A stretch of DNA of 64,000 nucleotides, taken from positions 62,001 through 126,000 of the forward strand of contig AP039692.1 in assembly GCA_051599415.1 (NCBI GenBank). Direction: 5' to 3'. Shown in pieces: positions 11,671-58,477 of the stretch; positions within the stretch are counted from its first letter, which is position 1; the number at the start of each line of letters is the position of its first letter. Source of the stretch: Savitreella phatthalungensis. Its lineage: Eukaryota. The notes under the pieces were generated by a model that was given only the letters and a program-made list of their open reading frames with translations, had not been told where the DNA came from and ran no database searches. The position numbers and the translations under genes were made by a program.

Positions 11671-12254
11671 TCAGGAGTTGAGCTTCTGAACGGCTTTGGC
11701 CTGCAGATATTCCGACAGCTTGACGATACCATTCGCTGTCACAGGCCGATAGGCTTCTCGCATAGGGGTGAAAGTACCATCGACGATCCGCGCGCCGGTC
11801 ACACGGACGGTGCCGATAATGTCCTCAGGGTAAGGAATTCGGCCGTATGGCGGCGGATTCTTATCGTCGCCAATGTGTAGGTGGCCCTCGCCCATAGCAG
11901 CCGCCATAGCTTCTAATACAGGATCCCGATGTGCTTCCGAGGCTACAAATTCCGACAACCAAGAGACAAACTCCGGATTCACTCGGAATGTTCCCGGTGA
12001 TAGATTGATGTCGTTCCCAGCAGCATTGAGAGGGGCGATACCGATTACACCATGAGATCGAGGTTCAGCCGTGCTGACGAAGCTGCACGTAGCTTTGGTT
12101 TTGTCGTCCGATAGGGCTTGAATATGCTTGACGGTTAGTCGATCGTGGACCATGAACGCGCGGTTAGACATACAATATGAGGATATGCTTTGGACTGCAA
12201 TCCTCGAAAGAGAAGCTTCGTCAATCGAGAGGTGCGCGATCGGTGACACAGCAT
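11671..12254 (-). CDS. Conserved fungal protein, probably mitochondrial; join(12174-12254, 11671-12126)
   Basis: 47-nt intron 12127-12173 (GTATGT..ACTAAC..AAG) joins an R/S/L-rich presequence (MLCHRSRTSRLTKLLFRGL) to the conserved core HIGDDKNPPPYGRIPYPEDIIGTV. Confidence 0.75.
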
Positions 12255-15469: not shown

Positions 15470-18132
15470 ATGATGTCAATTTTCAGGACACGTCTTCTTT
15501 TGCTATATTGGTGTGTGTCCACTCTCGCAACCATATTGATAGAAAGTGCGTGTCCAGCTCGTGGCCGACATTCTCGCTGGAACGCTTCGTACGCTTCGGC
15601 CTGCTCGCCGGCAAGAGCCTGCTCAAGAACTCGGCATTGTCCCGAGTGATGGCTCAACCGCCTGCGCTGGCTCGTGATGAGCGACCGTACGAGTTACACC
15701 GTGGCAGGCATATTTTGGCAACCGAAGTGCCCGAGGACGCCCCAGAGCTTGTCGTTCGCTGGCACTTTGCCACAGATGTACCGAAGCGCAGGCAGTATGC
15801 CGACAAGCCAAGCGCAGCTACTACCAGTAAGCCCAAATTGCCAACCCAATTCACCCCGTTCTCGGCTGCAGATTCACGTGCGATTGAGGACGCATACCTG
15901 ACGAGTAAGACAGCGGCCGACGATGAACATCTGCCAAGAATACCTGTGAATGAGGATCACTTGTTTGAAGTCAACATTCCAGATCGGGAGCTTGGGGCCA
16001 TCTACTGGCAAGGCCCAGTCTATGAGATTCGTCGCGGCACCTGGCACTTTGCTGATGGTTCTAGCCTAAAACCTTGTGACGAAGTCCTTGCGACCCAGGT
16101 CGAGGATGGCTATCTTAAAATCAAGCCATATCGAACGGGCAATGAAATGACCAGAGTCAGCCAAGACGCCCAGAAGGCCTTCAGCTCGGGTGATCAACTG
16201 GCAGATGTGTCAAAGGACAGTAGATTGGTTGCATCATCTGAAGTCAAGGCGACAGGAGCAGACCTCGCCCGCAGGAAGTCCTTGATCGAGGGCAAGACTG
16301 GGATAGATCAACCGAAAGATCACATGCGGCCGTTGTTTGGCGCATATGCTGGCAAGTATGTACTCTACACCAGTCCTTCAACGGCATGGCTGCTGTCTAA
16401 CGATTTGTATGGCAAAATCTCCTCGTCTTTCTTTCAAAGTATCACAAGAGGAGTGCACATGGGAGGTCAGAAGCTGAAGCGCGGTTTTTCGGATGCCGAG
16501 CAGAGAAAGGCCGCTGCAGCCGCCGCGCAAGCTGCAGAAGAAGCGCAGCAGAAGAAGGAAGAGCAACAGGAACCGCTTACGGAGAGCCTTGAGCAGGCTA
16601 GCTCTGCCAAGGAAGCAGATGCCGGCACTGGCAAGCCATCTGCAGTATCTGGTGAATACGAGCAAGGAGATGACCCTGATCGGAAGATTACGCACTTGAT
16701 TCTTTGCTGCCATGGCATTGGGCAGAAGCTTGGTGAGCGGATGGAAAGCGTCAATTTTGTGCACGACATCAACGTCCTACGGAGAAGCATCAAGAAGAGC
16801 TTCAAGCATTCGCGAGACTTGCAGGCGCTGGCAAGCGACAAGAACAATTGCGGTGTTCAAGTGCTACCAGTGCAGTGGCGACAGGCGATCAAATTTGGAA
16901 TGGCTAGAGATTATGCTGAAGACGAGCAGGATATCAGCAATACAACTGAACATGAAGAGGTTCCTACATTGCAGGATATCACCGTGGAAGGGGTTCAAAC
17001 GATCCGTAACATCGTTTCCGATGTGCTACTTGACATCTTGCTATATTACCAGCCAGCGTACAGAGAGCAGATTGTTCGGGCGGTGTCAGGCGAAATGAAT
17101 CGCATCTACCGACTGTTCAAGTCATATCATCCAGATTTCAACGGCAAGATATCGATCTTGGGCCACTCTTTGGGTTCGGCCATCGCTTTTGACATCCTCT
17201 GTCGACAGCCAGTCGATGAAGGCATGCACAAAATTCCAAAGGAGGTTCATATGGTCGAGAAGAGATTGGCCTTGGATTTTCCAGTGGAAAACTTCTATGC
17301 AGTCGGCAGCCCCATCGGACTCTTCCAGATGTTGCGCGGCAAGACTATCGCAGGCCGGGAACTGCTGCGAGAAGCGCCGCAGGAAGGCACGCCTTTCTCT
17401 CCGCTCGGTCCGATTCACGACCCATTGGAGACAGCGTCTTACAGCGCGTACGCTCAGGCCGCCCACGAGGCCGGTCATGTTCCTTCATCATATCCAAAAT
17501 GCAGAAACATGTACAACATCTTCCACCCGTCAGACCCAGTCTCGTACCGTATCGAACCTCTGGTCTCGAAGCATGCGGCAAAACTCAAGCCATATCCTCT
17601 ACCGTACACAAAAGCGGGCTTCCGACAACAGCTCGTCGGGCTGTCCAGCATCCCTCAAAGGGCGTACGAAGGGGCGAGCTCGTATTGGTCAGCAATTAGG
17701 TCATCTGTGACGAACTCTATTGTCTCAAGGTCGCTTGGCTATGGCGGTATGGACGACAAGTCCTCTGTTCCGCAGCAGCAAAATCAGTCTTCCCAAACAC
17801 AGCAGCTCAATATAGCAGTCCCTGGAACGTCGGCCGGTCAGGAGACATTGTACGCAGCTTTCGAGCGCACTTATGGCGCCAGCTCGCCCTCTCGCCCGGC
17901 ACAGGCCGACTCGAGTCGTGATCCGAAGGCCAGCGCATCTGGTGATGCAAAGTTACGAGCTTTGAATCGGACAGGGCGAATCGATTTCGCTATACAGGAG
18001 GATGTCTTTGGCTCTTCATACGTGTCGGCAATCTCTGCACATCTTCAGTACTGGTCTGACCTCGATTTGGCGTACTTCATTCTGTCGTATCTTAGTGTCG
18101 AGCCGGAGCAACGACGTCCTGATCGACACTGA
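15470..18132 (+). CDS. DDHD-domain phospholipase A1 (Ddl1-like)
   Basis: HLILCCHGIGQ, GHSLGS lipase motif, NIFHPSDPVSYRIEPL, GRIDF..SAHLQYW. Possible first exon 15470-15510 with a 47-nt intron 15511-15557 (GTGTGT..CAG); first unspliced ATG is 15649. Confidence 0.9.
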
Positions 18133-19288
18133 AGGCTTCCTTGACGGGACCGCCGCCAAGACACATGTCACCAGCATAAAGCGCTAAATGCTGACCAGGG
18201 GTGACAGCGAATTGAGGCGCAGAAAAACGAATGTCGACTTTGTCTCCGCGGACGGAGACACGACAGGCCACCGCAACCTCTTCACGATGCGGATCCGACT
18301 GGGCACGTGGGAGCATGTTACCTCGATGCCGTACTTGGCAAAGAAGCTCCCCTTCCCTAAGCTCTCCAGACCAATGGAACTGCTCGACAGTGCAACGATC
18401 GAACCACAGCATAGGATGCTGTCTTCCTCTGACGAGTGTGATGACGGCGGGCTCAATATGTTTACCTATCGTCTTGCGCGCCACATACCATTTGCCCTTC
18501 GTCAGCATGTTGCCTTGAGGTAGTTGCAAACCCGAGGCCTCCCCGATGGTCGTCGCCCAGATACCGCGATGGTCGGATGTCAGTTTGTTGCCGTTCTCGT
18601 CAGTGTAAATTACCGGGCCCGGTTCGAGGTAGTTGGACAAGAAGCTGCTGAATCTCCGGGTATCGGGCTCAACGAAGCATAGACCTTGAGACTCGCGTCT
18701 GCGAGAGACCTTGCTAGGCAGATCTAACTCACGAGCCATAGCGCGCACTTCGTCTTTCGTGTGTTCTGCAAGCGGGAAAATCATCTTGGCCATTGCAGAC
18801 GGTATGACGGTCGACAGGAAAAAGCTTTGATCCTTGTGACGATCCTTTGGCCGGCAGAGTCGACCGTGTCGTACATCAGCATAGTGGCCAGTGGCCAGCC
18901 ACCAGGGCCGTTGTTCTTCACGCTTGGTCAAAATCGACACGAGCGCTCCACATTTCACATAGCGATTGCAGGCGACATCCGGATTTGGCGTCCCGCCAGC
19001 TTTATAGACGTCGAGTGCCGGGGCAAAGACTTTATGCCAATACTCCCGGGACAGATCCACGAGTTCGCAAGGGATATCGAGCTGGGAACAAACAGCTCGA
19101 ACGTCGCGATAGTCCCGCTCGCTGGTGCATGCTGTTCCTGCCTCCTGCTCACGCCAATTACGCATGAAGACACCTCTGATGTCACTATAGCCAGCACGCA
19201 CGAGCAATCCGGCAGAAACTGACGAGTCGATCCCGCCCGACATGGCGACATAGATGCGATCCGTTTTGGCCAAAGCTCTTCCAAACAT
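18092..19288 (-). CDS. SLM3: Mitochondrial tRNA 2-thiouridylase MnmA/Mtu1
   Basis: VAMSGGIDSSV, TPNPDVACNR, ATGHYA, KDQSFFL, ESQGLCFV, AVTPGQ..CLGGG. Confidence 0.93.
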   Translation of the reverse strand: MFGRALAKTDRIYVAMSGGIDSSVSAGLLVRAGYSDIRGVFMRNWREQEAGTACTSERDYRDVRAVCSQLDIPCELVDLSREYWHKVFAPALDVYKAGGTPNPDVACNRYVKCGALVSILTKREEQRPWWLATGHYADVRHGRLCRPKDRHKDQSFFLSTVIPSAMAKMIFPLAEHTKDEVRAMARELDLPSKVSRRRESQGLCFVEPDTRRFSSFLSNYLEPGPVIYTDENGNKLTSDHRGIWATTIGEASGLQLPQGNMLTKGKWYVARKTIGKHIEPAVITLVRGRQHPMLWFDRCTVEQFHWSGELREGELLCQVRHRGNMLPRAQSDPHREEVAVACRVSVRGDKVDIRFSAPQFAVTPGQHLALYAGDMCLGGGPVKEAFSVDQDVVAPARH

Positions 19289-19725
19289 CCGGATATATCC
19301 TCAGACGTGCATGTGACTATCCATTCTACCTGGGGTGGCCATCGTCGCATGAGCTTCCACGCGTTAATCCTGTCGACTCCATCGACAGCATGGCCTCAAA
19401 TTGCGTACATTCTCTCAAGCATCAGCTGGCAGCGTATCGAACGACGGGAGTCCTTCTGGTGTATGGACGACCGGGTAAAGGATTATTTATCTGGAAGGCA
19501 TCCACTGCCCGGCTGTGATTTCCCTACATGCATGGCGCAGCGCGACGTCATACACGCACACCTGCCAGAATTCGATTGAAGCATAACAACGGCAAAGGGA
19601 ATGATCAACACAACATCAAAGACAAGCCTAAAAGATCGATTCTTCGAAAGTCGAATCCGACTGCTCTACTTGATTCTCATAGGACCGAGAGTGACGAACG
19701 CGCTTCATTACAAGCTGTTTGCATC

Positions 19726-20283
19726 ATGTCTTTTGACCGTGATTTGCGACGCAAAGAGCAGGCGAAGTACGATGAGCGTTTCGATTCCATGTGCGAGGAA
19801 GCGCGCGCTTGGCTACAAGAAGTGCTCGGGCGATCAGTCGAGGGAGATCTGATCGATTCGCTACGCGATGGATCGATCCTCTGCGAGGTATGCAACGTCA
19901 TCATTCCCGGATCAGTCCGTGGACGAAAGAGTGGCATGCCGTTCGTGCAGATGGAGAACATCGGGATGTTTCTCTCATTTGCACGGGACAAGCTGGGAAT
20001 CCCTGCACATGACATGTTCCAGACCGTAGACCTATACGAGCGGAAGAATACTTACCAGGTCATTCAGTGTATCCATACACTTTCACGATATGCTCAGACA
20101 AAGGCTGGACTCGAGGTGCGTGGGCTCGGTCCGAAGATGAGCACATCCAATTCACGTGACTTCACGAAAGAACAACTGGCTGAAGCTCGCAACACAGTGA
20201 ATACATTCCAATATGGCAAGCACACAGGCTCTACCAATGTCCTGCGCTCTTCTCGGAGAGATCCAGCAGGAAATATCTATTGA
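19726..20283 (+). CDS. Calponin/transgelin (Scp1/Stg1) actin-binding protein
   Basis: CH domain (LRDGSILCE, MPFVQMENI, FQTVDLYERKN) plus calponin repeat FQYG; ATG 19726. Confidence 0.88.
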   Translation: MSFDRDLRRKEQAKYDERFDSMCEEARAWLQEVLGRSVEGDLIDSLRDGSILCEVCNVIIPGSVRGRKSGMPFVQMENIGMFLSFARDKLGIPAHDMFQTVDLYERKNTYQVIQCIHTLSRYAQTKAGLEVRGLGPKMSTSNSRDFTKEQLAEARNTVNTFQYGKHTGSTNVLRSSRRDPAGNIY

Positions 20284-20538
20284 GCTCGCTGAAGAAAATC
20301 CGTCATCTTGTTCTCTTTCTTCGGAAGCGGAGGACGGGACCTGCGCAAGCGAGAGACTGGTTCGGCGTACACCGTAGGCGGTGTCATGCGTGGTGGCGAC
20401 CATTCGCGAGCACAGACCCGTGGGGGATGATTGCCAAAGAGCTCCTCTTCTAGATCATCCACATCGTCGTCGAGAGTGCTGATCATGTTGTTCCCGACCT
20501 GCTCTCGTAGCGTTGTCTCCAGTGCCTCAAACTCGCCA
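20277..20538 (-). CDS. Putative alternative last exon of the SRAP-Tad3 gene
   Basis: 45-nt intron 20539-20583 (GTACGT donor, GCTGAC branch, TAG acceptor) removes two in-frame stops and joins an open frame ending KKENKMTDFLQRAQ*. Confidence 0.55.
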
Positions 20539-20573
20539 CTACCGGTCAGCACAGACTCAGTTCGTCAGAATTG

Positions 20574-22526
20574 TCAAACGTACTCATCAGGTTCGAGCGA
20601 TTCGGCTCTCGTCTCCATCCAGCCGCCAAATACGGCGAAACGATGGTTCAACTCTTTGCGATAATGGATGCCGTACGAACTGGCGAATCCGCCACGCTCG
20701 GACGCCTTCGCGAAGAAGACTCGCTCTGCGCGCGCATGTAGAAGAGCCATACAGCACATGGTGCATGGTTCATGCGATATAAAGATCGTCAGGCCAGTGC
20801 ACAAGTACTGCGCAGCCGTCTCAGGCTGTTCGATGCGTCGTACAACCTCGTTCGCGGCAACCGCTCCCACAAGCTCCATTACAGCATGCTTGAGAGGGTG
20901 GCCTGAGCTTGATCTGGCATCCTTTGCGCGCGCAAGTTCTTCTCCAGTTTCAGCATTCCATGCGATGGCGGCCACGGGTAGGTCGCCGTCAGTGGTTTCC
21001 TGTGCAGCGAAACTGAGACATTGCTCCATGACAGCCTGACACCTTTCCAGGTCAGCTCGAGTCATGTTGACACGTCTTGTTGCAGGGACTCGCCAATTTA
21101 AGGGCCATCGTTCTTTCCAAGCATCGAATTGCTTCTGGCTCAGAGCCGGAAACCTGGAAACTTCAACCTCTTCGAGCTTAGCCTCGGGTACGCCATGATC
21201 GTCAAGCGCCTGTCGCAGTTCGTGCTCGGTCATCTCATCTGCTTTGCAAAGCAGAATTTGCACCAGCCCATCAGGATCATTACGTCGCGACCTGACTTCC
21301 CCGTCCTCGACCTTCACTCGTTTGGCGTCTTCTATCGGCCTCATGCGCTTGAGATGGTTCAGATCTCTCGACCTGAGCTTTTTAGCGATGAAGTCGACAA
21401 TCTTACCTGTCTCCGCCTTTCGCAACGTCAACGTTCGCACGACCAGGCCTTCAAATGGTCTCGTCTCGAGATGAGACGGAATGAAGTCGAACGGCAACTC
21501 GTTCTCGGGGACAAGGTCCTCCTTTGCCGGTCCTTTCGCGTGATGGGGATGGAGATGTTTCTCTGGCATCGGAGCGTTATTCTCAGTTGTCTCTTTGCGG
21601 TCGGTCTCATCATCGGTAGGCTGGTCTATCTCGTCTTCATGCTTCGCCACGGGACTTCTGGACCTGGCAAAGTAGTTTGCGATGTTATCCTTATTCTCTT
21701 TGGAGTCGATTGGCACAATGAAGCTCGGCGAGTCGTTGCCGACTTTCCCAACGTCCTTCTTGACAGCATAGCTCTCAAGCTTTGAAGGATCGAATGGCCG
21801 GAGCATTGCGGCGCACTCGTCATCCCATGTCTGCCCATCTAGCCATTTGGCGATCAATTGAGCATCGCACTTCTCCTCGAACATCAGAGGCATTCTATCG
21901 TGCAGCCAACCCATCCCCTCAGCTGCTGCAGTTGTGATTATTGTAAATGTCCACAGGGGTGGACTGTCTTCAGGCAGAGTTTCATAGCGAACACTGTCAT
22001 AAAGTCCACCCAAAAGCATCATCCCTCCATCTTTCCGTCTTGTAAAGAACGGCAACCTCTCCCGACCTCGTTTTTGCCACTCGTAATATCCTTGAACGGG
22101 AACGATGCATCTCTTTCGCTCCTTCATGGTGTTCCACATGCTCCTGCCACCTTCGATGAGGGAGTCGTCGCGACAGTTGATTGTCTTAAGCTGCGATGCG
22201 CTCTCGGGTGGGCGCTTGGTCCAGAACGGCACAAGCCCCCATTTCATCGACTGCAGGACTCGCGTGGGTCGGGCTGTATCCGTGTCCTCGGTGTTAGTAC
22301 CACGCGTGACGGTAGAGGACTCTGCTGTTTTGCCATCAGTGCGCTCGCTTGCGTCTGACGGACCATGCACAGATCGGTAGACGGCCTGATAGGTCTGAGG
22401 AGCAGCATTGTATGTGGGTCTGCGTGGAGTGTCAGAGTCGCGCACATCATCGACCCCAAGTCCTCCACTCTCCAGCTGCTGAGCTATGTATGCAGACTCA
22501 AATGACTGGGCAAACCTGCCACACAT
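20574..22526 (-). CDS. SRAP/HMCES abasic-site processing domain fused in frame to tRNA adenosine deaminase subunit Tad3 (650 aa)
   Basis: N-terminal MCGRF, MKWGLVPFW, INCRDDS, RCIVPVQGYYEW, WLHDRMP (SRAP); then PFDFIPSHLETR, HLKRMR, HPLKHAVM, HEPCTMCCMALLHAR, LNHRF (Tad3); no stop between the two. Confidence 0.88.
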   Translation of the reverse strand: MCGRFAQSFESAYIAQQLESGGLGVDDVRDSDTPRRPTYNAAPQTYQAVYRSVHGPSDASERTDGKTAESSTVTRGTNTEDTDTARPTRVLQSMKWGLVPFWTKRPPESASQLKTINCRDDSLIEGGRSMWNTMKERKRCIVPVQGYYEWQKRGRERLPFFTRRKDGGMMLLGGLYDSVRYETLPEDSPPLWTFTIITTAAAEGMGWLHDRMPLMFEEKCDAQLIAKWLDGQTWDDECAAMLRPFDPSKLESYAVKKDVGKVGNDSPSFIVPIDSKENKDNIANYFARSRSPVAKHEDEIDQPTDDETDRKETTENNAPMPEKHLHPHHAKGPAKEDLVPENELPFDFIPSHLETRPFEGLVVRTLTLRKAETGKIVDFIAKKLRSRDLNHLKRMRPIEDAKRVKVEDGEVRSRRNDPDGLVQILLCKADEMTEHELRQALDDHGVPEAKLEEVEVSRFPALSQKQFDAWKERWPLNWRVPATRRVNMTRADLERCQAVMEQCLSFAAQETTDGDLPVAAIAWNAETGEELARAKDARSSSGHPLKHAVMELVGAVAANEVVRRIEQPETAAQYLCTGLTIFISHEPCTMCCMALLHARAERVFFAKASERGGFASSYGIHYRKELNHRFAVFGGWMETRAESLEPDEYV

Positions 22527-22812
22527 AGCCGTGCGCCGACGTCCAATGTGCTCATATGCTGTTCCTTGAGTGACGCTGATACGTAATTTAACAAACCGTA
22601 TTGGCTTCACGTTGAACTGGTCTCCGATGTTATGCACGATCGTTTGAGGGAACACACAATACTGTGATCGCTTGACCACATCGATCCGCCTCATAGCATC
22701 TGCAGGAATAGCAGAACACACAAAATACATGGACGTCGGAAATGGCTCGCAACCCATGCGAAAAAAAGGTTAGGGTCAGGGTTACGATCTCTAGTGAATG
22801 ACGAGGGTATAG

Positions 22813-27028: not shown

Positions 27029-27403
27029 ATGGTAAGTCGACGAACTGATCTCGGTAGTTCGTAAGATCAATGAACTGACCCATAGTCCACTGCCATCAAG
27101 TCGGCCAAGGCCATTCAGCCATTGCTGAACCGCATCTTGGTACAGCGCACAAAGGCTGAGGTAAAGACAGCCACCGGAATTTTTCTGCCGGAGAAGGCCC
27201 AATCGAAGCTGAATGAGGGAACTGTGCTCGCCGTCGGCCCAGGCGGCGTCGACGATGTCACCGGCAAGGTCGTGAAGACGAGCTTGACTGTTGGACAGCG
27301 TGTGCTTCTGCCCCAATTTGGCGGAACGCCCGTTCAAGTTGGAGAGGAGGAGCTGACCCTTTTCAAGGAGTCGGAGATCCTCGCCATTATCAACGAGCAA
27401 TGA
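27029..27403 (+). CDS. HSP10: Mitochondrial co-chaperonin Hsp10; join(27029-27031, 27086-27403)
   Basis: ATG|GTAAGT intron 27032-27085 (CTGAC..TAG); IQPLLNRILV, KTATGIFLPE, VLAVGPG, LFKESEILA. Confidence 0.95.
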
Positions 27404-39068: not shown

Positions 39069-39804
39069 ATGCAATTCACGTACTTGCTGAATGGCTTGCT
39101 CGCCTTTGCTACCCTAGCGTCAGCTCGTAAGAGATCATACACTCGCCAGCACGCGAGCTTCACAAGGCTCCGTAAGATTTACTGACCGACTGATAGTCAA
39201 ATTCGACCTCGAGGCTCATAGACCTGGATTCAACAAGCAACGGTGCATCCGGGACTACGTTGCCGGCGACGTGCTTGTGGTCGTGACAGCTTGGGTGTCT
39301 GATGGCTCGAACGCTGCCAGGGACGCTGTGAGGACGGACATTGAGATCTCAGATTCTCTGGGCAATCAGTATGCTCGTCCGAGGAACGTCTGGGGAGAGT
39401 CACGCTCGGCCTTCACCGTTCACGAGGCTGCGTACGTCAAAGTGTGCTTCGACAACGTCATCAACCAGGGCTATCCTGACCATGCAGGTTCGGGCGGCGT
39501 CCAGAGACATATCGAGTTGGACGTCGACATCGGTGCAGATGCACTCGATTGGTCAGCGATTCAGAAAGCTGAAAAGCTGGGTCCTCTCGAGGCCGATCTG
39601 AGGAGGGCAGAAGGGTTGATGGGCGAGGTCGTGGCAGAAATGGAGTATTTGCGTGCACGGGAGCAGCGGTTGCGGGATACAAATGAGAGCACGAACGACA
39701 GAGTCAAAGGCTTCGCCTTCCTCTCCCTAATCGTACTCCTCGGCACAGGCGTATGGCAGGTCGTCTATCTGCGAAGATTCTTCCAGCGCAAGCACCTCAT
39801 TTAG
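39069..39804 (+). CDS. ERV25: p24 family cargo receptor Erv25/TMED10; join(39069-39126, 39197-39804)
   Basis: Signal peptide, 70-nt intron (GTAAGA..CTGAC..TAG), LKFDLEA, LRDTNESTNDRV, WQVVYLRRFFQRKHLI. Confidence 0.92.
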
Positions 39805-57370: not shown

Positions 57371-58057
57371 GATTATCGGGATACTAATAAATGGCGAGAG
57401 AGCCTGACTTCTATTGAGGTAGTATGCCTTCGTGATTGTGCCGGTTACGGGTGAGGATTTGGCAATGAGAGATTCTCACGCTCAGCCGCACGTGTATCAT
57501 AGTACAATTCGTTATTCACCATCAATTGAACGTCAATATATAGATGCATGTCGTTTTGGAAATGATTAACGTAGTGAATTATGATTGTATTCTGACATAC
57601 TCTTGCCGATCAGATCAATGAATCACTCGCAACTTTAATTAGATTACAGATGCAGGGATCTATGGTATTCAATCAGGTAGGCATATGTCATGGTATCCAT
57701 TTGAATGCACAAATCCATAGGCGACAGGAAATTTGTGGCTCATGTGGCGCATCACTCTCAAATTTGACAGTACCGTGCACGTGAGCGTTGACGCCGATGC
57801 CAATTGTGCATCCTGACAATCTTTTAGAGTGATGGATTCCGGATGTCCAGATCGCCTTTGTGTCGAGACGCTGGAAGGGTTTCTATCCAACAGGGAAACA
57901 ACGTCAAGGTAACCATTGCTCCCATCTACAACAACGCTGAAGAGTGATCTGAGTATCGGATTCACTTTCTCACAAGCAGACGGACGATATCAGCCAGCAC
58001 GCCGACGCTGCTGAGCCCACATATAGCTTGCAGGCCTAGTCCGTCGATCGGCACAGT

Positions 58058-58477
58058 ATGAGCACGCCCATCGTGGCTCCTTTCTCACAGGCAAATCGAT
58101 CTCGCGTCGCGTCACTCTACAAGCGTTCACTCAAGCTCGCTCGCGACTGGCTCATTCACAGAGACTCATGGCGTCGCCAAGCTATGCTCATCCGCGAGCG
58201 CTTTGAGCAGAATCGCGATGTACATGACCCGCGTCTGCTGAATGACATCTTTGCAAAGACGGAAGCAGAGCTCCTCAAATACAAGCATCCTCACCCCTAT
58301 ATTGGTACGTTTCACCATTGCTCATTCGCGGCAAATCAAAAATGCGATGCACCGGTTCCTCTGACGTTAGTACTAACACCCTCTATAGTCCCCACAGCGC
58401 CTGGAGGTTCAAAGTGGGAGCGCAATATTCCACCAAAGCTTGCAGATGGCCCTGTAGAGCAACGAGAGGTCGACTGA
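58058..58477 (+). CDS. Complex I subunit NDUFB9 (LYR family); join(58058-58304, 58389-58477)
   Basis: SLYKRSLKLARDW, IRERFEQNRDV, HPHPYI^VPTAPGGSKWERN; intron GTACGT..TACTAAC..TAG. Confidence 0.9.
   Translation: MSTPIVAPFSQANRSRVASLYKRSLKLARDWLIHRDSWRRQAMLIRERFEQNRDVHDPRLLNDIFAKTEAELLKYKHPHPYIGTFHHCSFAANQKCDAPVPLTLVLTPSIVPTAPGGSKWERNIPPKLADGPVEQREVD

Follow-up and report, generated by a model that had tools for sequence, protein, structure and literature searches.

A candidate intron over the stop codon of an SRAP-Tad3 fusion gene and a possible second C-terminus

The locus analysed here combines an SRAP domain and a Tad3-like deaminase domain in one reading frame, and a candidate intron lies directly over the stop codon of this frame. 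The question is whether the gene has one C-terminus or two, that is, whether the fusion protein ends where the frame ends or could also be extended by splicing. Throughout, the window is the whole stretch of DNA that was analysed (64,000 nucleotides).

The fused gene and its unspliced end

The SRAP-Tad3 fusion is a single minus-strand ORF of 650 aa (P0004), ending EPDEYV-TGA. Its unspliced reading has the following features:

20577..22526, minus strand: SRAP-Tad3 fusion CDS, unspliced reading; 650 aa, stop TGA at 20574-20576
21741..22526, minus strand: SRAP domain, residues 1-262, starting with MCGR (Pfam PF02586, E 1.2e-60)
21669..21701, minus strand: first putative PIP-like motif 3' of the SRAP domain, KENKDNIANYF, residues 276-286 (from the alignment of fused proteins)
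20577..21170, minus strand: Tad3/ADAT3-like pseudo-deaminase domain; contains HAV and PCTMC and has ..EPDEYV as its native end (PDB 7nz7_B; PF00383)

The SRAP domain is full-length: it starts with MCGR (Cys2) and covers positions 1-214 of the 214 of the PF02586 profile. Pfam places the deaminase domain (PF00383) at residues 496-606 of the same ORF. In PDB, the C-terminal 198 aa match mouse ADAT3 best (7nz7_B, E 3.2e-26) and also yeast Tad3 (E 6.6e-18); this part carries H-A-V instead of H-A-E (KHAVMEL), together with PCxxC (HEPCTMC). Nine further fused proteins, including one from Protomyces lactucae-debilis at BCR37DRAFT_378883, align end to end with SRAP-Tad3, and the block DSKENKSNIANFF at the first PIP-like motif is nearly invariant across all ten; that KENKDNIANYF would be PIP-like is our own reading of the sequence. 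No publication describing an SRAP-Tad3 or HMCES-ADAT3 fusion came up in a full-text literature search, and an Rfam scan of 19500-22800 gave no match at E up to 1.

The end EPDEYV had been described in the original prediction as Tad3-like, and several comparisons agree that it is the native Tad3 terminus. All ten fused proteins have YV as their last two residues. Residue D195 of the C-terminal 198 aa (D647 of the protein) aligns to chain residue 316 of 7nz7_B, the penultimate one, and to D348 of mouse ADAT3. According to the available part of PMC8216470, D348 is the fourth zinc ligand in mouse ADAT3 and P349 a cap; yeast Tad3 has C322, its final residue, in the role of fourth ligand (available part of PMC7713142). 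Among 24 deaminase loci, mostly unfused Tad3, 19 stop 18-23 residues past the position aligned to residues 633/635 of our protein, which itself has 17/15 left, and ten of these 19 are closed by [DE].[IV][CYF]A immediately before the stop. Judged by these alignments, the ..YV-stop end is selected.

Like ADAT3/Tad3 (mouse 7NZ7, yeast 7BV5), the fusion has HAV, PCxxC, an acidic residue at mouse D348, and a chain end within three residues. Unlike them, it is fused behind an SRAP domain and its last two codons double as a candidate 5' splice site; moreover, the last residue is V in all ten fused proteins, whereas most unfused relatives have A. An AlphaFold2 model of the 650-aa protein built with a 10-row alignment was uninformative on the C-terminal cap (mean pLDDT 44.6, residues 638-650 below 50).

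The candidate intron and the tail

Across the stop, the minus strand reads ...GAA CCT GAT GA / GTACGTTTGACAATTCTGACGAACTGAGTCTGTGCTGACCGGTAG / T GGC GAG..., where slashes mark the candidate splice boundaries. The features of the spliced reading and its surroundings are:

20539..20583, minus strand: candidate phase-2 spliceosomal intron, 45 nt; donor GTACGT at 20583-20578, branch CTGAC at 20549-20545, acceptor TAG at 20541-20539
20565..20576, minus strand: two in-frame TGA stops within the candidate intron, at 20576-20574 and 20567-20565
20277..20538, minus strand: predicted tail exon, 1 nt + 86 codons + TAG (codon score, GC phase, homologue P0015)
20418..20456, minus strand: conserved block DLEEELFGNHPPR, tail residues 28-40, 12/13 identical to P0015
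20334..20372, minus strand: conserved block VYAEPVSRLRRSR, tail residues 56-68, 11/13 identical to P0015
20292..20309, minus strand: KMTDFL, PIP-like motif of the SRAP type at the end of the tail, with four residues between it and the stop; the only six-frame motif hit in the window
19729..20283, plus strand: convergent calponin-homology gene (Pfam CH, E 1.7e-20), whose last 7 nt overlap the tail CDS
21401..21406, minus strand: donor-like GTAAGA in Tad3 N-lobe codons (T-G-K-I), phase 1; frame incompatible with the tail

A 45-nt candidate intron with canonical donor, branch and acceptor is thus seen over the Tad3 stop, as predicted, and the coordinates agree that its splicing would remove both stops and open an in-frame tail overlapping the calponin CDS by 7 nt. 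With the candidate intron retained, the product ends ...EPDEYV at 650 aa; with the candidate intron removed, EYV is exchanged for D plus 86 aa, giving a predicted protein of 734 aa.

The donor GTACGT conforms to GTRNGT and is the sole 6/6 donor in the CDS, as well as the sole GTNNGT in phase 2. Six nucleotides (CGGTAG) lead from CTGAC to the end of the TAG acceptor, the same layout as in the Cpn10 intron and other candidates of the window; a second CTGAC lies inside the candidate intron at 20568-20564. Candidates of the type GTACGT..CTRAY..YAG (38-90 nt) occur six times in the window, compared with 1.1 +/- 0.8 times in Markov-1 simulations, and the other GTACGT-type candidates likewise have CTGAC 4-7 nt before YAG. 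A survey of 39 ORFs with 200 codons or more gave 62 bare GT..AG pairs that span a stop and open at least 60 more codons; the full donor/branch/acceptor grammar is present in one of them, the SRAP-Tad3 candidate. The other probable introns in the window are 54-86 nt long, against 45 nt here (a further 45-nt candidate, 11877-11921, is unconfirmed); the 54-nt intron at 27032-27085, directly after the ATG of the Cpn10 gene, is backed by Pfam, with the Cpn10 profile covered from 2 to 93 of 93 on 27086-27400. As a counterpoint, a constraint on the protein to keep Y-V may be the sole reason for the donor.

The tail reads GEFEAL...KKENKMTDFLQRAQ up to its stop and looks disordered and contains stretches that are acidic, Pro/Arg-rich or basic. 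Per codon it scores a log-likelihood of 0.149, while 115 coding windows have a mean of 0.139 (sd 0.093) and wrong-frame ORFs of 80-200 codons a mean of -0.139, none of the 137 reaching the value of the tail. Among ORFs outside long ORFs, the stop-to-stop ORF of the tail ranks fourth of 36. The GC content at codon positions 1/2/3 is 0.66/0.44/0.59 in the tail and 0.60/0.45/0.58 in the SRAP-Tad3 gene; three control rows of this comparison (big1, big2 and mnmA-like) were out of frame and were left aside. The agreement of codon usage and GC pattern with the real genes of the window argues that the tail is coding and not a chance frame. On the other side, a coding tail, with its stop TAG at 20279-20277 and the calponin-homology stop TGA at 20281-20283, forces the 7-nt overlap of two convergent CDSs and a longer one of their mRNAs.

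Coding conservation of the tail, on which the original prediction had been made to depend, was found, as P0015 shares two near-identical blocks with it. This 99-aa ORF was the only match in a phmmer search of the tail against 1.84e9 representative proteins (E 7.7e-4 library-wide, pairwise E 5e-13, 29/57 identical). The two have in common DLE.ELFGNHPPR and VYAEPVS.LRR.R, and P0015 ends ..NFFKPS before its stop. P0005, which belongs to the two fused homologues nearest to SRAP-Tad3, and P0015 each lie on one Logan contig with a length of 10,037 nt. A tail homologue was found for one of the nine fused relatives only. The first residues of P0015 (..SD..FICS), read back into DNA, are compatible with CTGAC, a pyrimidine tract and CAG. 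In a collection of 5.8e9, 2,353 candidates with lengths of 175-2,000 aa were screened for proteins above 175 aa that contain the tail, and none was found, which is weak evidence; a near-length search with a two-sequence profile, covering ORFs of 47 aa or more, returned P0015 alone among 47 candidates. The Protomyces gene model and the source genome's own 650-aa entry both terminate at YV.

A third product had also been proposed, in which a donor at 21406 is joined to the same acceptor. The sequence cag/GTAAGA is present at this position; as a donor it is in phase 1, whereas the acceptor fits phase 2. Translation across the junction would run out of frame and stop after 18 residues instead of entering the tail, and we reject this product. 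An SRAP-plus-tail isoform skipping Tad3 was considered and rejected as well, since there is no phase-2 donor above 5/6 upstream of residue 573, and none in the SRAP-Tad3 linker.

The SRAP-type end of the tail

The pattern [ILMV][TQ][SDNE]F[FL]x{0,12} followed by a stop has one six-frame hit in the 64-kb window, which is the end of the tail, and ten in 57 metagenome loci (270,387 nt), where eight hits close unfused SRAP genes (L001, L021, L027, L030, L031, L032, L047 and L048) and two lie elsewhere; the pattern was defined after the tails had been seen, and its rarity is therefore a post-hoc statistic. Like the tail, unfused eukaryotic SRAP/HMCES proteins have a disordered stretch and, within a few residues of the stop, a hydrophobic-x-x-aromatic-hydrophobic motif: the unfused ends KITSFFSSKE (L001), SITDFFTRKALS (L031) and TMQSFFPLSK (L047) compare with KMTDFLQRAQ in the fusion. 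In several fungal unfused SRAP loci the motif is carried by its own small last exon, as predicted for the fusion tail; in L021 and L031 this exon lies behind an intron of ~60 nt. Unlike HMCES and unfused SRAP proteins, the fusion has its tail split from the SRAP body by the whole of Tad3 and a stop, and reachable only by splicing.

The tail differs from a canonical PIP-box in that it lacks the glutamine at position 1 (E-N-K-M-T-D-F-L has E there), and PCNA binding is putative. Unfused fungal SRAP tails also lack Q at position 1, and Q is found within the motif only in L047/L048. The C-terminal region of HMCES has PIP motifs required for its replication function (available part of PMC9067407), and the PIP-box of Xenopus HMCES includes W321-L322 (accessible portion of bioRxiv 10.1101/2021.07.29.454365).

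The claim that KMTDFL is PIP-box-like holds insofar as the motif is of the SRAP type, while the proposed echo of KENKDNIANYF is weak: it extends over 19 residues (PIDSKENK..NFF) with a blastp E of about 1, and neither tail had a significant blastp match in the full-length fused proteins. In tblastn of the tail and P0015 against the 57 metagenome loci, matches were weak, the best being P0015 against L001 just behind the SRAP domain (E 0.2). The terminal motif is common to the tail and the C-termini of unfused SRAP proteins; similarity over the whole tail is not significant, and the link between them therefore rests on this motif and the general layout.

Readings of the locus

Since the tail is coding-like, conserved and has an SRAP-type end, the best reading is that Tad3 was inserted inside an SRAP gene and that the tail is the original SRAP C-terminus, as had been suggested; the coding signature, the conservation in P0015 and the terminal motif support this in part. 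Retention of the intron would then yield the native Tad3 end and splicing the SRAP PIP-like tail, a reading to which we give an even chance. An SRAP gene, encoding an abasic-site sensor of the HMCES/YedK type, would have taken up the complete coding sequence of Tad3/ADAT3, an essential tRNA-editing subunit, behind the SRAP body and ahead of its own last exon, with the native Tad3 C-terminus and stop kept. The last two Tad3 codons, TAC GTT (Y-V), with the preceding G would make the 5' splice site, and the resulting G/GTACGT is a perfect one. If the intron is retained, the stop after ..EPDEYV would leave a free, short acidic C-terminus capping the zinc site, as in ADAT3/Tad3. If the intron is removed, both stops would be gone and 87 residues would be added, ending with KMTDFL like unfused eukaryotic SRAP proteins, and the PIP-like tail would serve a PCNA/replication-fork function, as in HMCES. 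We expect both mRNAs to be made, so that one gene would provide a Tad3-competent form and an SRAP-tail form. We infer the splicing, the coexistence of both forms and the role of each. More tentatively, the switch may be regulated, with retention giving the form that edits tRNA A34, and with splicing losing the zinc-capping end, restoring a PCNA-binding tail and sending the polypeptide to replication forks; the invariant Y-V would then be a clade-wide dual constraint on protein and splice site.

Two alternatives are, in our estimate, about equally unlikely. According to one, splicing is constitutive, the 734-aa SRAP-Tad3-tail protein is the sole product, and the YV-stop is an artefact of gene callers that ignore the intron. 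The perfect donor, branch and acceptor and the coding-like, conserved tail would fit this, and Y-V could be explained as a GTAYGT donor read as codons. However, a splice site does not demand a stop right after YV, yet all ten fused proteins have it; an equivalent stop with a similarly acidic end is found in 19 of the 24 deaminase loci, most of which are unfused Tad3; in the mouse and yeast structures the zinc site incorporates the terminus, as far as the available parts of their descriptions go; and the Protomyces model, from an annotated genome, terminates at YV.

The other alternative makes the tail a stranded former last exon of SRAP that is no longer expressed as protein, so that every product ends at YV and the intron signals are leftover or chance. 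Database proteins do all stop at YV, none longer than 175 aa contains the tail, the tail is found beside one of nine relatives only, and it is awkward that the tail CDS overlaps that of the calponin gene. Nevertheless, the tail has stayed open in two lineages with just 56% identity between their main proteins, and in both it retains near-identical blocks and a terminal FF/FL motif; in codon usage and GC phase it is entirely like a gene, and the splice grammar is intact.

It is improbable that the tail is a separate small gene, translated alone from the ATG at NNM-ISTL (69 aa), with the 99-aa P0015 as its counterpart in the relative. An ATG lies upstream in both ORFs, and P0015 is a stand-alone protein call, but the ATGs do not align (M18 of the tail faces a gap or L in P0015), the promoter would need to sit within Tad3 codons, the motif at the end is that of SRAP proteins, and frame and phase fit the candidate intron exactly.

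Rare readthrough of both stops, which would reach the tail unspliced because the length of 45 nt is divisible by three and the frame is continuous except for the two UGA codons, each before C, is the least credible reading, as it multiplies two small probabilities, makes the full splice grammar a coincidence, and has the contexts UGA-CAA and UGA-CGA, not the UGA-CUA reportedly found in a study of fungal UGA readthrough. C-terminal extensions by UGA readthrough are known in fungi (available part of PMC4207609).

The insertion of Tad3 into an SRAP gene with a candidate intron over the stop, if confirmed, would be a clear case of a gene fusion resolving a conflict over its C-terminus, between Tad3, which needs a free end at the zinc site, and SRAP, which needs a terminal PIP-like motif. 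It would also mean that current gene models of the clade miss a conserved exon and, if true, connect the shielding of abasic sites at replication forks with tRNA wobble editing in a directly testable way. A paper on peroxisomes from 2012 is said to have described cryptic peroxisomal targeting in fungi by alternative C-termini. In fungi, alternative C-termini arise by 3' alternative splicing or readthrough in cryptic peroxisomal targeting and in SKI7/HBS1 (available parts of PMC3597508 and PMC4207609). As presented there, these cases resemble SRAP-Tad3 in that one gene gives two proteins differing in a short C-terminal motif, chosen around the stop; in the peroxisomal cases a tripeptide signal is present or absent, whereas the candidate SRAP-Tad3 switch would be between the two ancestral ends of a fusion.

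The SRAP-Tad3 fusion gene and the candidate intron over its stop

The fusion gene, the candidate intron over its stop and the neighbouring features are as follows.

22526-20577, minus strand: SRAP-Tad3 fusion ORF (P0004), 650 aa, a single ORF
P0004 residues 1-262, minus strand: full SRAP domain that begins with MCGR (PF02586, E 1.2e-60)
P0004 residues 496-606, minus strand: deaminase match (PF00383)
20583-20539, minus strand: 45-nt intron candidate, phase 2, reading GA/GTACGTTTGACAATTCTGACGAACTGAGTCTGTGCTGACCGGTAG/TGGC across the P0004 end
Stop TAG 20279-20277, minus strand: tail ORF (P0001), 86 codons in the frame of P0004, open behind the intron candidate
19729-20283, plus strand: convergent calponin-homology CDS (Pfam CH, E 1.7e-20)

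The C-terminal part of P0004 contains KHAVMEL and HEPCTMC and matches mouse ADAT3 (7nz7_B, E 3.2e-26) and yeast Tad3 (7bv5_C, E 6.6e-18); by its sequence, it is a Tad3/ADAT3-type pseudo-deaminase. The fusion is conserved, as nine other proteins (P0005-P0013, one of them from Protomyces lactucae-debilis) align across both domains with 49-58% identity. A full-text literature search found no publication on an SRAP-Tad3 or HMCES-ADAT3 fusion, and Rfam yielded nothing in the SRAP-Tad3/tail region. Nearby, a 402-codon ORF (18092-19300, minus strand) carries the motif SGGIDSSV and, judged by that motif, may be a tRNA 2-thiouridylase (MnmA/Slm3-like).

The original prediction described an intron spanning the Tad3 stop and opening a further reading frame, and all elements of this observation proved correct when the sequence was re-read. 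P0004 ends in SLEPDEYV followed by TGA, both in-frame TGA codons lie inside the 45-nt candidate, and the tail stop falls 7 nt within the convergent CDS. The candidate has two CTGAC branch-like motifs (20564-20568 and 20545-20549, minus strand), the first of which includes the second in-frame TGA.

We scanned 39 ORFs, each 200 codons or longer, at their ends for stop-spanning GT..AG pairs of 38-120 nt opening at least 60 further codons. There were 62 such pairs, and a bare GT..AG with an open frame is worthless as evidence in the window. Only one of the 62, the 45-nt candidate, combined a GTRNGT donor, a CTRAY branch and a YAG acceptor. Over the whole window, GTACGT..CTRAY..YAG (38-90 nt) was observed six times vs. 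1.1 ± 0.8 in 30 Markov-1 simulations, and GTA[ACT]GT-type candidates ten times vs. 3.8 ± 1.8 (Markov-1); the loose GTNNGT type was not enriched there (30 observed vs. 34.5 simulated). Position 20583 is the only donor in the whole CDS that has a 6/6 match and is in phase with the tail. At 45 nt, the candidate is at the short end of those in the window, and it fits the local intron grammar because it shares the layout of CTGAC followed by YAG 4-7 nt on with other candidates, including the Pfam-backed Cpn10 intron.

27032-27085, plus strand: 54-nt intron of the Cpn10/Hsp10 gene, GTAAGT..CTGACCCATAG, immediately after the ATG, Pfam-backed
58040-58474, plus strand: LYR-family (Complex1_LYR) gene, split by a candidate intron
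58305-58370, plus strand: that candidate intron, 66 nt, GTACGT..CTGACGTTAG
39490-39801, plus strand: exon coding for just an EMP24/GOLD domain's C-terminal half (profile 89-182 of 182)

The exon downstream of the 54-nt intron (27086-27400, plus strand) covers positions 2-93 of 93 of the Cpn10 profile without a start of its own, and the EMP24/GOLD exon starts where candidate intron 39432-39487 has its acceptor.

Two possible C-termini

Retention of the 45-nt intron would yield SRAP-Tad3 with its native zinc-capping end, while splicing would replace EYV by D and 86 residues, restoring an SRAP tail. The tail has one acidic and one basic Pro/Arg-rich stretch, of which the latter may, at a guess, be an NLS, and a terminal motif resembling the PCNA-interacting (PIP) motif.

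All ten fused proteins end in Y-V, the four preceding residues varying; since a splice site does not require a stop right after YV, termination there is under selection. Among 24 deaminase loci read to the stop, 19 terminate 18-23 residues past the position that matches query 633/635; from there, the query itself has 17/15 residues to go. The ends are [DE].[IV][CYF]A in ten and PG[IV]EV in seven; five loci (L034, L039, L042, L050, and L051) end differently, and some of these are probably not Tad3. D647 of P0004 aligns to the last residue but one in the mouse ADAT3 chain. According to the structural literature, this residue in mouse, D348, is the fourth zinc ligand, the carboxylate of the terminal P349 capping the site (PMC8216470), and in yeast Tad3 the fourth ligand is the last residue, C322 (PMC7713142). 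The AF2 model (mean pLDDT 44.6) is too poor to show a C-terminal cap. We conclude that the YV-stop end is real too. All fused proteins have V at the last position, vs. A in most unfused ones, and each of the residues that precede Y (V, T, A, or E) has a codon ending in G; the final V and the possible preceding G would fit a clade-wide G/GTAYGT donor laid over the Tad3 end.

That both the intron-retained and the spliced forms are made and used has, in our estimate, about an even chance. Constitutive splicing, by which EYV would be lost from every product, is unlikely.

Coding character and conservation of the tail

Using codon log-likelihoods trained on those other ORFs in the window that have 300 codons or more, with their five other frames as the null, we obtained 0.149 per codon for the tail. 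Coding windows of 86 codons have a mean of 0.139 (sd 0.093, n = 115), and wrong-frame ORFs of 80-200 codons a mean of -0.139, with 0 of 137 attaining the tail score. Among 36 ORFs in this size range that lie mostly outside long ORFs, the tail is fourth and the Cpn10 exon first. GC1/2/3 values are 0.66/0.44/0.59 in the tail vs. 0.60/0.45/0.58 in the fusion gene, with the same pattern in the calponin gene, three out-of-frame control rows being left out of this comparison. It is doubtful that a sequence of such composition is a stranded relic exon that is not expressed.

When 1.84 billion cluster representatives were searched by phmmer with the 86-residue tail, the only match at E ≤ 0.001 was the 99-aa predicted protein P0015 (E 7.7e-4 for the whole library). 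In pairwise comparison, 29/57 residues are identical (E 5e-13), and the common blocks are DLE.ELFGNHPPR and VYAEPVS.LRR.R; P0015 ends in KKTSKNFFKPS. P0015 and P0005, a 768-aa fused SRAP-Tad3 protein 56% identical to P0004, each occur on a single Logan contig, 10,037 nt in length, and appear to be neighbours. Among ORFs of at least 47 aa, no counterpart of the tail turned up for the remaining eight fused relatives, and a protein collection search did not find the tail in any protein longer than 175 aa. The tail could also be a separate small ORF, but its ATG does not align with that of P0015, making this improbable; readthrough of both UGA codons into the tail is very improbable.

Probable origin of the tail and proposed further products

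The scan of JGI/ENA metagenome contigs yielded 57 loci with unfused SRAP or unfused deaminase/Tad3 genes, none of which had the fusion. Read to their stops, SRAP loci have long disordered tails, e.g., ..AKGTAKITSFFSSKE (L001), ..SSITDFFTRKALS (L031), and ..TMQSFFPLSK (L047). A six-frame scan for [ILMV][TQ][SDNE]F[FL] with a stop 0-12 residues behind it, a motif framed after these tails had been seen, gave 10 matches in the loci (270,387 nt). Of these, eight terminate unfused SRAP genes and lie on the strand of the gene (L001, L021, L027, L030, L031, L032, L047, and L048), representing about four independent lineages, as L021, L027, L030, and L031 are alike and L047 and L048 near-identical; the remaining two are located elsewhere in the loci. 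In the 64-kb window, the one match is KMTDFLQRAQ at the tail end. The terminal motif is specific, although the number given for its rarity is post hoc.

In L021 and L031, the motif is on a last exon of ~20 aa behind a ~60-nt intron, and hence unfused fungal SRAP genes feature a small "PIP exon" at their end. The introns before this exon are:

5052-5111 of L021 (approximate): intron before the last exon, unfused fungal SRAP gene
3408-3462 of L031 (approximate): intron before the last exon, unfused fungal SRAP gene

In these genes, the last exon reads KQKGGQT.SITDFF.RKALS before the stop. In published work on the SRAP-type protein HMCES, its replication function needs the C-terminal region with PIP motifs (PMC9067407), and the Xenopus PIP-box is disrupted by W321-L322 changes (bioRxiv 10.1101/2021.07.29.454365). 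Together, the motif, the terminal exons and the HMCES results support the boldest proposal of the original prediction, by which the tail represents the C-terminus of the SRAP gene itself and Tad3 lies within that gene. The suggested echo of the internal PIDSKENKSNIANFF in KKENK-MTDFL of the tail is weak (E about 1).

The interpretation as alternative C-termini stands in part: the intron candidate and the tail held, and the third product as suggested, lacking the deaminase, was rejected. Its donor at 21406 (cag/GTAAGA) is present but in phase 1, so that joining it to the phase-2 acceptor misses the tail frame and yields 18 residues of unrelated sequence before a stop. No usable phase-2 donor was found in the SRAP-Tad3 linker, and therefore an SRAP-plus-tail form without Tad3 is unsupported.

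Among fungal precedents for alternative C-termini, a paper of 2012 reportedly described cryptic peroxisomal targeting. Others are SKI7/HBS1 (PMC3597508) and readthrough extensions (PMC4207609). The arrangement proposed here would bring together elements of known kinds, namely a terminal SRAP PIP exon, zinc capping by Tad3 and 3' alternative splicing as in fungi.
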